DNA of 54,484 bases from Escherichia coli. Its GTDB lineage: Bacteria; Pseudomonadota; Gammaproteobacteria; Enterobacterales; Enterobacteriaceae. This document shows, piece after piece, positions 7,596 to 9,226 of the stretch. The stretch lies in the NCBI RefSeq assembly GCF_003334355.1, contig NZ_QOWP01000027.1. The stretch is one strand, 5' to 3'. The notes beneath the pieces were generated by a model. That model was not told where the DNA came from. It was given only the letters and a program-made list of their open reading frames with translations, and ran no database searches. Both the position numbers and the translations under genes were made by a program. The stretch's first letter is position 1, and every line of letters begins with the position of its first letter.

Positions 7596-8345
7596 ATGTC
7601 TTTGCCGTCGATTCCCTCTTTTGTGTTGTCGGGATTACTGTTGCTTTGCTTGCCGTTTTCTTCATTTGCCAGCGCCACCACATCACATATCTCTTTCAGC
7701 TACGCCGCCCGCCAGCGGATGCAAAACCGTGCGCGTTTATTAAAACAGTACCAAACCCATCTGAAAAAACAGGCCAGCTATATTGTGGAAGGCAATGCCG
7801 AAAGCAGAAGGGCGCTACGCCAGCACAACCGGGAGCAGATAAAACAGCATCCAGAATGGTTTCCTGCGCCGCTCAAGGCGAGCGACCGACGCTGGCAGGC
7901 GCTGGCGGAGAACAATCACTTTTTAAGCAGCGACCATCTGCATAACATCACCGAAGTGGCGATTCACCGTCTGGAGCAACAGCTTGGCAAGCCTTACGTC
8001 TGGGGCGGCACGCGGCCCGATCAAGGCTTCGACTGTAGCGGGTTGGTTTTTTATGCCTACAACAAGATCCTTGAGGCGAAGCTCCCGCGCACGGCCAATG
8101 AGATGTATCACTATCATCGGGCAACGATTGTGGCGAATAACGACCTGCGCCGGGGAGATTTGCTGTTTTTCCATATCCACAGCCGCGAGATAGCCGATCA
8201 TATGGGCGTGTATTTGGGCGATGGGCAATTTATCGAGTCGCCACGTACCGGCGAAACCATTCGGATAAGCCGATTAGCCGAACCTTTCTGGCAGGACCAT
8301 TTTTTGGGCGCGCGCAGGATTTTGACGGAAGAGACGATTTTGTAG
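7596..8345 (+). CDS. yafL: NlpC/P60-family peptidoglycan endopeptidase lipoprotein YafL
   Basis: 249 aa from ATG 7596 (MSLPSIPSFVLSGLLLLCLPFSSFA… signal), NlpC/P60 catalytic Cys context (GFDCSGLVFYAY) and His (…IADHMGVYLG). Confidence 0.87.
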   Translation: MSLPSIPSFVLSGLLLLCLPFSSFASATTSHISFSYAARQRMQNRARLLKQYQTHLKKQASYIVEGNAESRRALRQHNREQIKQHPEWFPAPLKASDRRWQALAENNHFLSSDHLHNITEVAIHRLEQQLGKPYVWGGTRPDQGFDCSGLVFYAYNKILEAKLPRTANEMYHYHRATIVANNDLRRGDLLFFHIHSREIADHMGVYLGDGQFIESPRTGETIRISRLAEPFWQDHFLGARRILTEETIL

Positions 8346-8434
8346 GCCGGATAAGGCGTTTACGCCGCATCCGGCGGTTGTGCGCAGATGCCTGATGCGA
8401 CGCTGACGCGTCTTATCATGCCTACAAATCTGTG
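8343..8434. repeat. REP/BIME cluster
   Basis: gtaggccggataaggcgtttacgccgcatccggcg…gcctgatgcgacgctgacgcgtcttatcatgcctaca. Confidence 0.85.
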
Positions 8435-8520
8435 CGTTTTTGCGAGCCGCTTTCCTGTTATTCCATCACCTCATTGCCGACCTTTCCTTTTCTTCTTACC
8501 GTTGAGAAAAAGGAGTCGCC

Positions 8521-9018
8521 ATGTCTGAATATCGTCGTTATTACATCAAGGGGGGAACCTGGTTTTTCACGGTGAATTTACGCCATCGTCGAAGCCAACT
8601 CTTGACCACCCAGTACCAGATGCTCCGTAACGCCATTATTAAAGTTAAGCGAGACAGGCCTTTTGAAATCAACGCCTGGGTCGTTTTGCCAGAGCATATG
8701 CATTGCATATGGACATTACCTGAAGGCGATGATGATTTTTCCTCTCGCTGGCGGGAAATTAAAAAGCAATTTACCCATGCTTGTGGATTGAAAAATATCT
8801 GGCAACCACGTTTTTGGGAGCACACCATCCGCAATACCAAAGATTATAGGCATCATGTTGATTATATTTATATAAATCCAGTAAAGCATGGTTGGGTAAA
8901 GCAAGTGAGTGATTGGCCATTCTCAACGTTCCATCGCGATGTCGCGCGAGGGTTATATCCCATCGATTGGGCGGGGGACGTAACGGATATAAATGCTGGC
9001 GAGCGTATCATTTTATAA
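8521..9018 (+). CDS. yafM: REP-associated tyrosine transposase (RAYT, IS200/IS605-like HUH)
   Basis: 165-aa ORF, HUH motif (…LPEHMHCIWTLP…) and C-terminal Tyr region (DYIYINPVKHGW); flanked on both sides by REP clusters; AGGAG RBS. Confidence 0.85.
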   Translation: MSEYRRYYIKGGTWFFTVNLRHRRSQLLTTQYQMLRNAIIKVKRDRPFEINAWVVLPEHMHCIWTLPEGDDDFSSRWREIKKQFTHACGLKNIWQPRFWEHTIRNTKDYRHHVDYIYINPVKHGWVKQVSDWPFSTFHRDVARGLYPIDWAGDVTDINAGERIIL

Positions 9019-9020
9019 TT

Positions 9021-9226
9021 ATGCGCAGATGCCTGATGCGACGCTGGCGCGTCTTATCATGCCTACAAACCTGTGCCGGATCGGTAGGCCGGATAAGGCG
9101 TTTATGCCGCATCCGGCAGTTATGCGCAGATGCCTGATGCGACGCTGGCGCGTCTTATCATGCCTACAAACTTGTGCCTGAACGGTAGGACGGATAAGGC
9201 GTTCACGCCGCATCCGGCAGTTGTGC
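9021..9226. repeat. BIME (about 4 REP units)
   Basis: Alternating REP palindromes (gcctgatgcgacgctggcgcgtcttatcatgcctaca / ggtaggccggataaggcgtttatgccgcatccggca) repeated twice between yafM and lfhA. Confidence 0.85.

Follow-up and report, generated by a model that had tools for sequence, protein, structure and literature searches.

How REP repeats came to be so abundant in the Flag-2 flagellar locus of Escherichia coli, what they do there, and whether they account for the deletion of the locus from K-12-like strains are questions raised by the presence of a REP-associated transposase gene at its left edge. I analysed one strand of a 54,484-nt stretch of DNA including this region (the window), from the E. 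coli assembly GCF_003334355.1, contig NZ_QOWP01000027.1. REP units were located by blastn-short with three consensus sequences (Y, Z1 and Z2), and the calls were re-checked with nhmmer, using profile HMMs built from 70 REP instances. The window contains 23 units, 22 of them full at E ≤ 2e-6 with the type-specific HMMs, and one partial at E = 9e-5. All 23 fit the Y, Z1 or Z2 consensus, and carry the GTAG tag except for one unit (38367–38404), with GCAG. They form 11 clusters, all intergenic; 10 lie 3′ of a gene, while the remaining one separates divergent genes. The orientation alternates in all eight multi-unit clusters made of full units; a ninth multi-unit cluster, between lfgG and lfgH (32587–32747), combines a partial Z2 with a complete Z2-like unit in the same (plus) orientation. 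No REP was found at positions 1–5012 and 40772–54484 of the window, and a 20-nt Z2-like match of 32 bits was dropped as spurious, as it recurs inside IS1 copies.

The window units are, like the E. coli REP/BIME elements previously described (Bachellier, 1999; BIME-1 and BIME-2), extragenic, GTAG-tagged and alternating. The gathering score of the Rfam family naRNA4 (RF02564) is reached by four Y-Z2 pairs, and that of ES036 (RF02751) by one Y-Z1 linker, at 40705–40747. The IHF consensus WATCAANNNNTTR, searched as an exact pattern only, has no match in the linkers of the three Y-Z1 pairs (22745, 29631 and 40669). Unlike in usual E. coli elements, the BIME between lfiM and lafK separates divergent genes, a class with about 1% of K-12 REP elements (preprint 10.64898/2026.03.23.713779), one unit has GCAG for GTAG, and one spacer contains a partial unit with a 100-nt non-REP insert. 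K-12 holds about 600 REP units (PMC8266576), with REPs in 146 tandem and 207 convergent gene pairs (preprint 10.64898/2026.03.23.713779); the MG1655 RefSeq record has no REP repeat_region features, and K-12 counts were therefore taken from papers.

The leftmost cluster is a three-unit BIME (Y, Z2, Y; 5013–5145, by consensus, HMMs and Rfam), located after lpcA and before yafJ, 3.4 kb left of rayT. The rayT gene (yafM, tnpA_REP; 8521–9018, plus strand; labeled rayT by PGAP) encodes a 165-aa REP-associated tyrosine (HUH/Y1) transposase, which scores 178 bits against NCBIfam NF047646 (cut-off 80), and is identical to the crystallised TnpA_REP (PDB 4ER8) at 160 of 164 residues (97.6%). The HUH motif (H59-M-H61) and the catalytic Y115 are present, their positions being read from the sequence; Y115F is a catalytic mutant of K-12 TnpA_REP (PMC8266576). 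To the left of the gene, consensus search and profile HMMs identify a two-unit BIME (8340–8427), with Y at 8340–8375 (minus) and Z2 at 8387–8427 (plus), and a naRNA4 match at 8345–8422. It overlaps the yafL stop codon (8343–8345), whose TAG falls within the GTAG tag of this Y unit. To the right, between the convergent rayT and lfhA genes, lies an alternating four-unit BIME (9028–9220; consensus, HMMs and Rfam), composed of Z2 at 9028–9068 (plus), Y at 9084–9119 (minus), Z2 at 9129–9169 (plus) and Y at 9185–9220 (minus). Cognate GTAG-tagged REPs bracket rayT on either side, as in a REPtron, and the E. coli REPtron spans window positions 8340–9220, its right end being 21 nt short of the lfhA stop codon at 9242. 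The initial annotation had described yafM as bracketed by a REP cluster to its left and, adjoining lfhA, a BIME of four units to its right, and both coordinates and unit types confirm this.

The same element is known as REPtron Ec in E. coli K-12 MG1655 (Nunvar, 2010, PMC2817692; Ton-Hoang, 2012; Messing, 2012, PMC3479197; Corneloup, 2021, PMC8266576). The gene is common to both, with four amino-acid substitutions between the two proteins, and the chromosomal site (yafL-rayT-lfhA) and the order of units (Y-Z2 on the left, Z2-Y-Z2-Y on the right) are the same; however, the K-12 REPtron adjoins the fhiA/mbhA remnants, whereas that of the window adjoins an intact lfhA and a complete 38-kb Flag-2. 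The near-identical K-12 TnpA_REP cuts and rejoins single-stranded REP DNA in vitro (PMC8266576, PMC3479197), and it is plausible that the RayT allele described here would do the same. Since the core element is a textbook E. coli REPtron, already known, there is nothing new on its identity, and it is the REP data for Flag-2 that are a modest new detail.

The rayT gene is present in 3575 of 5426 complete E. coli genomes, and is effectively single copy in these (median 1, maximum 2 places per genome). In the Flag-2-positive O111:H8, hicAB is found in place of the REPtron, and the true rayT-less alleles carry hicAB at the site. Two further genomes suspected to lack rayT both carry it, and in ET201 an IS621 inside the right-hand REPtron BIME splits the alignment, with rayT present. 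Flag-2 can thus exist without rayT at its edge, since some strains that carry the locus have hicAB there instead of the REPtron. The RAYT orthologues of Citrobacter, Salmonella and Pseudocitrobacter are encoded elsewhere. The proposal that a RAYT marks the left boundary of Flag-2 therefore applies to rayT-positive Escherichia, and fails for the hicAB alleles and the other genera.

Flag-2 itself (9242–47069) comprises 42 genes, from lfhA to lafU, all intact in this strain, with a GC content of 55.5% versus 50–51% in the flanks. Its interior contains eight REP clusters and 14 units. A BIME (Z2 minus, Y plus; 15650–15735; consensus, HMMs and Rfam) occupies the divergent lfiM|lafK promoter region, and stays two-unit in 1150 E. 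coli genomes. Another (Y plus, Z1 minus; 22745–22828; consensus and HMMs) lies between convergent cytidylyltransferase and glycosyltransferase genes. In the lfg region, the lfgD|lfgE spacer has a BIME (Z1 plus, Y minus; 29631–29732; consensus) beginning 16 nt past the lfgD stop, and lfgF|lfgG a single Y REP (31724–31761, minus; consensus), 9 nt past the stop, where comparison with Citrobacter shows a clean insertion of ~50 nt. The lfgG|lfgH spacer holds the partial Z2 (32587–32608), the 100-nt insert and the full Z2-like REP (32709–32747), all identified with the HMMs, while lfgJ|lfgK has a BIME (Z2 plus, Y minus; 34877–34962; consensus and HMMs). The diverged Z2-like REP with GCAG (38367–38404, minus; HMMs) stands alone between the convergent lafW and lafZ, and the last BIME (Y plus, Z1 minus; 40669–40771; consensus, HMMs and Rfam) begins 10 nt past the stop codon of the flagellin gene lafA.

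At six of the seven 3′-side Flag-2 sites the first REP starts 5–16 nt past the stop codon, the distance being 27 nt at the cytidylyltransferase|glycosyltransferase site. REPs are reportedly placed within 15 nt of stop codons. The initial annotation had counted at least nine further clusters inside the locus, and had placed REPs at almost every operon junction. All eight coordinates that it listed do hold REPs, while no ninth cluster was found; only 8 of the 41 internal junctions are occupied, and three or four of these eight are inside an operon, with lfgD|lfgE, lfgF|lfgG and lfgG|lfgH predicted to be intra-operonic from the operon layout of Vibrio laf and E. coli Flag-1. Conversely, six Flag-2 spacers of 70–485 nt (GT|KMT, KMT|lfgN, lfgM|lfgA, lfgA|lfgB, lafZ|lafA and lafU|dinB) contain no REP. 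The Flag-2 papers examined do not mention REPs, and the text of PMC6993521 has neither "repetitive" nor "palindrom"; the REP map of Flag-2, and its restriction to Escherichia, is a modest detail added beside known biology.

The K-12-type deletion joins window position 10945 to 46300, both within coding sequences, and removes about 35.4 kb. The left endpoint (10937–10954) is in lfhA, with GAT (10943–10945) as the last shared bases, and the right endpoint (46298–46312) is in lafU, with GAT at 46300–46302; the joint is this 3-bp GAT, within an 11/15 imperfect repeat. As far as the work of Ren et al. (2005) is related in PMC6993521 and PMC3032704, Flag-2 of E. coli 042 has the same lfhA-lafU gene order, and the K-12 scar is the same deletion, its two ends falling in lfhA and lafU and its joint showing short direct repeats. 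The identical junction is present in 4087 of 5426 complete genomes (75%), spanning several phylogroups. It had been suggested that REPs were the recombination substrates in this deletion: they are dispersed repeats, BIMEs flank and fill Flag-2, and in some genomes the alignment breaks at REP coordinates, giving events that seem REP-bounded at first sight. However, the distance between junctions and REPs, proposed as a refutation test, is 1.7 kb on the left (nearest REP ending at 9220) and 5.5 kb on the right (nearest at 40771), the homology is 3 bp exact, neither endpoint is in a repeat copy, and one and the same junction recurs in all 4087 genomes. For the K-12-type allele REP-REP recombination is thus refuted, and I regard it as scarcely credible. 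K-12-like strains lost Flag-2 through a single ancient event of illegitimate recombination, which involved short imperfect repeats and was unrelated to REPs. This closes the idea of a REP-mediated loss: a single microhomology event inside two genes is now carried by three of every four sequenced E. coli. In about 190 genomes (3%) both the K-12 junction and the conserved lfiM|lafK segment are missing, and some of these could carry other deletions, REP-bounded ones included. Breaks at REPs in three partially matching genomes were considered as deletions and rejected, as the loci are complete and differ only in BIME copy number.

The density of REPs in Flag-2 is 8 clusters in 37.8 kb, or 0.21 per kb, 4.9-fold the rate of 0.043 per kb in the same genome, estimated from 13 clusters in six pre-chosen 50-kb samples (300 kb). 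The background for E. coli is ~355 REP loci per 4.64 Mb genome. The Poisson probability of at least eight clusters is 3e-4 at the sampled rate and 0.01 at that background, and the count per gene junction (8/43 in Flag-2 versus 13/287 in the samples) gives a Fisher p of 0.002; these p-values are optimistic, because Flag-2 was chosen for looking dense. Adjusting for gene-orientation category, with the counts of preprint 10.64898/2026.03.23.713779, leads to an expectation of about 2.6 clusters versus 8 observed, a ~3-fold excess. The earlier claim of an unusual density, for which the genome-wide level had been set as a refutation test, has survived it, at three- to five-fold above expectation.

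One explanation for this excess is that the adjacent rayT seeds REPs into nearby single-stranded DNA, the neighbouring 38 kb filling faster than the rest of the chromosome. The 4.9-fold rate directly beside the REPtron points in this direction, as does the concentration of REPs near tnpA_REP in Marinomonas (PMC8266576). In Citrobacter the RAYT gene is elsewhere and the examined Flag-2 junctions are REP-free, and in Salmonella the 12.5-kb deoC-nadR region around RAYT has 7 clusters, against 2 in the orthologous rayT-less 14 kb of E. coli (raw counts), but these comparisons are of one locus each, with small numbers that are raw with respect to the Salmonella and Citrobacter REP background. Moreover, REP density does not fall off with distance, and is highest 20–32 kb from rayT; there is only one non-flanking BIME in the 20 kb leftward and none in the 7.4 kb past lafU, and the ±6 kb around the C. 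werkmanii RAYT contain no BIME other than the two that flank it. I consider this effect of proximity doubtful.

Alternatively, Flag-2 may be cryptic, dispensable and weakly selected in Escherichia, with REP insertions in otherwise compact operon junctions left unpurged and accumulating neutrally. In 75% of genomes Flag-2 has been deleted, pseudogenes are found in Flag-2-positive strains (a fliD frameshift in M23314 and an internal stop in flgK in O111:H8), Flag-2 is without a demonstrated function in this species (PMC3032704), the similarly laid out Flag-1 operons have 3 sites in about 44 kb, and unit numbers drift freely among strains. In contrast, all 42 genes are intact here and in most Flag-2-positive strains (78% complete; De Maayer, 2020), the insertion sites are stable across species, with the lfiM|lafK BIME invariant in the 1150 genomes, and Flag-1 too accepts a REP at flgF|flgG. 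Such relaxed selection is possible, if on the whole unlikely, as the reason for the excess.

Comparison with other Flag-2 loci gives a time frame for the insertions. E. coli-type REPs are present at the same junctions in 6 of 6 Escherichia-type Flag-2 loci, the sites being common to E. coli, E. whittamii and the cryptic Escherichia clades, at a DNA divergence of up to 11%. At seven examined junctions of nine Citrobacter Flag-2 loci (90–94% LfgF identity) no REP was found, and the lone match anywhere in these nine loci is weak, unassigned and Y-like; the same scan detects the Y/Z1 REPs that flank the RAYT gene which Citrobacter possesses. Among 63 more distant Flag-2 loci, two have a cluster of Z1/Y-like type between lafW and lafZ. 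In the non-Escherichia-type loci the spacers are 11–30 nt at lfgF|lfgG and 20–95 nt at lfgD|lfgE. The number of units varies by strain, being 0, 1, 2, 4 or 6 at lfgD|lfgE, a site that is empty in O111:H8, where the spacer measures 23 nt, and 2 to 12 at lfgJ|lfgK, with 12 in Escherichia sp. MOD1-EC7003. Since the sites are shared across Escherichia species and absent from Citrobacter, and the unit number is strain-variable, a long residence of the REPs in the genome, as first proposed from the window alone, is supported. It is conceivable, if doubtful, that the REP load of Flag-2 is in addition a datable, lineage-restricted footprint of vicinity-biased spread by the adjacent rayT, consisting of eight insertions after the split from Citrobacter-type loci followed by turnover. 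If true, natural rayT-minus controls are at hand, in the hicAB allele of the Flag-2-positive O111:H8 and the empty lfgD|lfgE site, and REP transposition in E. coli, a step that has so far escaped observation, becomes testable by comparative genomics. Flag-2 is in any case a natural series for REP dynamics, with fixed sites, 0–12 units, empty sites, rayT+ and rayT− backgrounds, and REP-free Citrobacter orthologues.

The reading that I find highly probable combines a REPtron, REPs seeded from it in Flag-2 within Escherichia, a putative role of these as RNA barriers and attenuators, and a deletion unrelated to them. RayT binds the REP hairpin and GTAG on single-stranded DNA, cuts and rejoins beside the hairpin, and is presumed to spread and maintain REPs (PMC8266576). 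The rayT gene is a domesticated HUH/Y1 transposase gene, present in single copy with cognate REP/BIME repeats on either side, and the eight Flag-2 sites would be ordinary products of this system. REPs went in a few nucleotides past stop codons, and at one site into a divergent promoter region, in the Escherichia lineage, probably after its Flag-2 had split from that of Citrobacter and before the Escherichia species separated, with local gain and loss of units thereafter. In the transcripts, judging from other E. coli REPs, their stable hairpins may act as barriers to 3′ exonucleases and as partial Rho-dependent attenuators, which would work to the advantage of the upstream gene of a pair.

A further proposal is that the REPs are kept by selection because they fix the relative amounts of flagellar parts, such as high flagellin against low cap protein, or steps in the rod-hook operon. 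The REPs begin 5–16 nt past stop codons, tandem pairs with REPs have an upstream bias in expression genome-wide (preprint 10.64898/2026.03.23.713779), and there is a parallel in the unrelated primary system, with a Y REP at flgF|flgG and a Y-Z1 BIME after fliC, overlapping the FliX sRNA. However, the flgF|flgG coincidence is expected by chance roughly 1 in 3, a BIME would in any case be expected behind a monocistronic gene with high expression, and the orientation of the BIME differs between lafA and fliC. The empty lfgD|lfgE in O111:H8 and the 0–12 units elsewhere speak against a tight constraint, and seventy Flag-2 loci of other genera do without REPs. I regard selection of this kind as improbable.

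A role as mRNA stabilisers or terminators, also raised in the initial annotation, is plausible by analogy. REP325, in the yjdMN operon, is both a stabiliser and a partial Rho-dependent terminator; the preprint on it (10.64898/2026.03.23.713779) also reports wide variance, with half-life not affected as a general rule. REP325 and the Flag-2 REPs are alike in their tandem-gene context, their Y/Z2 hairpin arrays a few nucleotides past a stop codon and their variable unit number, but the function of REP325 was measured, whereas the Flag-2 REPs are known from sequence alone. As expression of Flag-2 has yet to be demonstrated in E. coli (PMC3032704), its REPs may be without phenotypic effect; should it prove to be expressed, their positions predict where transcript levels step down. 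The hairpins predicted for the REP clusters range from −19 to −87 kcal/mol. They lack a U-tract, and within 27500–47200 none was called as an intrinsic terminator; the sole strong plus-strand terminator site near a REP in this interval is a separate terminator-like hairpin at 40792–40815, 3′ of the lafA BIME.

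In the window, which is identical to the reverse strand of E. coli strain PSS-12 (NZ_AP027697.1), the left flank carries yafV, ivy, fadE, lpcA, yafJ, dpaA, yafQ-dinJ and yafL (7596–8345). It is followed by rayT (8521–9018) and by a complete, 42-gene Flag-2 cluster extending from lfhA (9242–11335, minus strand) to lafU (46146–47069), and then by dinB, yafNOP, pepD, gpt, frsA and crl on the right. The GC content of Flag-2 (9242–47069) is 55.5%, against 50–51% for both flanks, with lafZ (38418–39260) an outlier at 42.5%. Toxin-antitoxin modules near the locus vary independently of one another: dinJ-yafQ is missing in comparison loci L095 and L096, and yafNO in L094, L095 and L102. 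Positions 54302–54415, at the crl 3' end and ahead of phoE, carry an IS10 outside end (CTGATGAATCCCCTAATGATTTTGG...) that contains a match to the full length of Rfam RNA-OUT (98.8 bits); no IS10 is annotated at this place, and the sequence is apparently an isolated end fragment.

REP searches with the E. coli consensus units Y, Z1 and Z2, and with profile HMMs derived from 70 REP instances, agree on 11 clusters and 23 units in the window. A 20-nt stretch inside IS1, matching Z2 at 32 bits in every IS1 copy (L007, 15475; L002, 11678; L012, 18763; L015, 11669), was rejected as a recurrent false positive. The initial annotation had placed rayT between BIMEs beside lfhA, and this anatomy is accurate, the interval 8340–9220 being exactly as described. 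On the left is a Y-Z2 pair (8340–8427) whose first GTAG shares bases with the yafL stop codon, and on the right, stopping 21 nt short of the lfhA stop codon, a four-unit Z2-Y-Z2-Y BIME (9028–9220). RayT scores 178 bits against NCBIfam NF047646 (cut-off 80), is identical at 160 of 164 residues to the crystallised TnpA_REP (PDB 4ER8), and possesses the HUH motif (H59-M-H61) and the catalytic Y115. K-12 (L001) has an identical architecture at the identical chromosomal site. This is the known E. coli REPtron, together with ordinary REP/BIME insertions.

That RAYT marks the Flag-2 boundary holds only loosely. The gene is present as a single copy in 3575 of 5426 genomes (1851 lack it), and in rayT-less alleles a hicAB toxin-antitoxin pair stands in place of the whole REPtron, replacing the equivalent of window 8345–9246, with endpoints precisely at the yafL and lfhA stop codons (L096, 3678–4471; L101, 3534–4321). 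This replacement was seen in one Flag-2-deleted strain and in the Flag-2-positive O111:H8, which without rayT retains REPs at six Flag-2 junctions. RAYT orthologues are located elsewhere, between deoD and lplA in Salmonella and Pseudocitrobacter, and in C. werkmanii at a third locus that is neither of these sites. The placement of rayT next to Flag-2 is specific to Escherichia. In strain ET201 (L094, 2795–3775), IS621, an IS110-family element that targets REPs, has inserted into and split the BIME that separates rayT from the lfhA remnant.

Within Flag-2, all eight positions proposed initially (about 15650, 22747, 29625, 31725, 32590, 34878, 38367 and 40670) contain REPs, but no ninth cluster was found even at permissive HMM thresholds, so that the count of at least nine does not stand. 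Five sites separate tandem genes (lfgD-lfgE, lfgF-lfgG, lfgG-lfgH, lfgJ-lfgK and lafA-lafB), two separate convergent genes (cytidylyltransferase-glycosyltransferase and lafW-lafZ), and one lies in the divergent lfiM-lafK promoter region. The distance from the upstream stop codon to the first REP is 5–16 nt, with the cytidylyltransferase-glycosyltransferase junction (27 nt) as the exception, and the clusters are predicted to form RNA hairpins of −19 to −87 kcal/mol. Among the REPs scanned in 27.5–47.2 kb, none is followed by a U-tract; the sole good plus-strand terminator-like hairpin near a REP there, at 40792–40815 just past the lafA BIME, is a separate element. The description of REPs at almost every operon junction proved overstated, because six spacers of 70–485 nt are REP-free (glycosyltransferase-KMT, KMT-lfgN, lfgM-lfgA, lfgA-lfgB, lafZ-lafA and lafU-dinB), and three sites (lfgD-lfgE, lfgF-lfgG and lfgG-lfgH) would be intra-operonic by comparison with the Vibrio laf and E. 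coli flg operons. A putative regulatory role of the Flag-2 REPs is plausible.

In the lfgG-lfgH spacer, which is 82 to 468 nt long in other strains, a truncated Z2-like REP and a full one are separated by a 100-nt non-REP segment (32609–32708) that contains a 9-bp inverted repeat (GTGGACGGT...ACCGTCCAC). Three additional hypothetical genes stand next to the BIME at the cytidylyltransferase-glycosyltransferase junction in strain E19 (L005, 2271–4659), and a toxin-antitoxin pair between lafW and lafZ in strain 042 (PMC3032704); cargo has therefore inserted at both of the convergent junctions that bear REPs.

The REP density was said to be unusual, and this is borne out. The 37.8 kb of Flag-2 contain 8 clusters with 14 units (0.21 clusters/kb; 8 of 43 junctions), against 13 clusters and 24 units (0.043 clusters/kb) in six 50-kb stretches of the same chromosome, fixed beforehand and totalling 300 kb with 287 annotated features. 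At this sampled rate the Poisson probability of at least 8 clusters is 3e-4, at the E. coli figure of about 355 REP loci per 4.64 Mb it is 0.01, and a per-junction Fisher test of Flag-2 against the control gives p = 0.002; all these values are optimistic, since Flag-2 was chosen as dense-looking. In K-12, REPs occupy about 146 of 2597 tandem and 207 of 704 convergent gene pairs, and divergent spacers hold about 1% of REP elements (preprint 10.64898/2026.03.23.713779). With 36 tandem, 2 convergent and 3 divergent junctions in Flag-2, these rates predict about 2.6 occupied junctions, where 8 are observed. As a matched control, about 44 kb of K-12 primary flagellar (Flag-1) genes contain three REP sites: flgF-flgG, flhB-cheZ (weak) and a BIME after fliC. 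Given the excess over expectation and both controls, the enrichment is real, and three- to five-fold.

The age of these insertions was assessed from one genome per species, in 78 Flag-2 loci, each taken as lfgF plus at most 10 kb per side. E. coli-type REPs occupy identical junctions in six Escherichia-type loci (LfgF identity at least 97%, DNA identity 89–95%), namely E. whittamii, two cryptic Escherichia species, two Pseudocitrobacter species and a MAG labelled Citrobacter. In contrast, nine Citrobacter loci (LfgF 90–94%, about 76% DNA identity) have no REPs at seven examined junctions, their sole match being one weak, unassigned Y-like match in L043. Among 63 more distant loci, two (L039 and L060) have a Z1/Y-like cluster in the lafW-lafZ spacer, and the remaining 61 have no REP match. 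Outside the Escherichia type, the lfgF-lfgG spacer is 11–30 nt in most loci and lfgD-lfgE 20–95 nt; at lfgF-lfgG, a clean block of about 50 nt with a Y REP aligns at one position in all Escherichia-type loci and in no other. Citrobacter is not REP-free but has REPs of its own: Y and Z1 units, detected at 52 bits, flank the RAYT of C. werkmanii (75% identity). The REPs therefore entered after the Escherichia-type and Citrobacter loci diverged and before the Escherichia species split, upholding the suggestion of long residence. In Pseudocitrobacter faecalis and P. vendiensis (L018 and L019), Flag-2 DNA is 90.7–92% identical to E. coli (Citrobacter, 76%) with E. coli-type REPs at matching junctions, and the RAYT (L099), at deoD-lplA, is merely 66% identical; this suggests transfer of the locus with its REPs between genera.

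The same sites stay occupied, but the number of units at them varies. At lfgD-lfgE (29618–29776), there are no units in O111:H8, one in GCM74-1-1 and M23314, two in the window, four in E19 and six in P. vendiensis. The O111:H8 site (L102, 20588–20610) is a REP-free 23-nt spacer, either ancestral or left by near-precise excision; the stop codon there is TAA, and TGA in REP-bearing strains. One or three units are found at lfgF-lfgG and one to four at lafA-lafB, while the lfgJ-lfgK site of Escherichia sp. MOD1-EC7003 (L021, 14194–14869) is a 12-unit Z2-Y array of about 680 nt, the largest BIME among the Flag-2 loci seen. The lfiM-lafK BIME has a constant two units in 1150 genomes (90–100% identity). 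Elsewhere, REP units are known to be gained and lost locally (PMC8049555), and the new content here is modest: the Flag-2 REP map, its restriction to Escherichia, and strain-to-strain turnover.

Closeness to the REPtron may explain part of this REP load, as suggested by the contrast between Escherichia and Citrobacter, by the 12.5 kb around the Salmonella RAYT, with seven clusters where the orthologous rayT-free E. coli stretch has two, and by a report of such a pattern in Marinomonas (PMC8266576). However, the REPs do not decay with distance, and the flanks beyond Flag-2 are at background. Selection for expression steps may also be partly what keeps them; the Flag-1 parallels at flgF-flgG and past the flagellin gene are suggestive, but compatible with chance. 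The former is a Y REP (L011, 6651–6684) at a junction also occupied in Flag-2; the latter, a Y-Z1 BIME (L013, 2969–3067), overlaps the annotated FliX sRNA and parallels the BIME after lafA.

The proposal that REPs were the recombination substrates of the K-12-like Flag-2 deletion is refuted. The K-12 region (L001) aligns with the window on the left up to 10954 and on the right from 46298, with a 15-base overlap; both ends fall in coding sequence, of lfhA and lafU respectively, far from any REP (the nearest being at 1.7 kb and 5.5 kb). At single-base resolution, the joint reads ...AAAGTTGAT followed by TGTCAACAG..., and the exact shared sequence is GAT, within an 11/15 imperfect repeat (GTTGATGATCATCAG vs GTGGATTGTCAACAG). 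Apparent REP-bounded breaks in other genomes were BIME copy-number differences inside intact loci; the inspection covered genomes with the K-12 joint or with Flag-2, about 190 falling outside both classes. A 300-bp probe across the joint, counted at 80% coverage or more, matches 4087 of 5426 complete genomes at 94.6–100% identity, including O157:H7, HUSEC2011 and Seattle 1946. The K-12-type deletion is one old event, and not recurrent REP recombination, in agreement with what is cited in PMC6993521 from the account of Ren et al. (2005).
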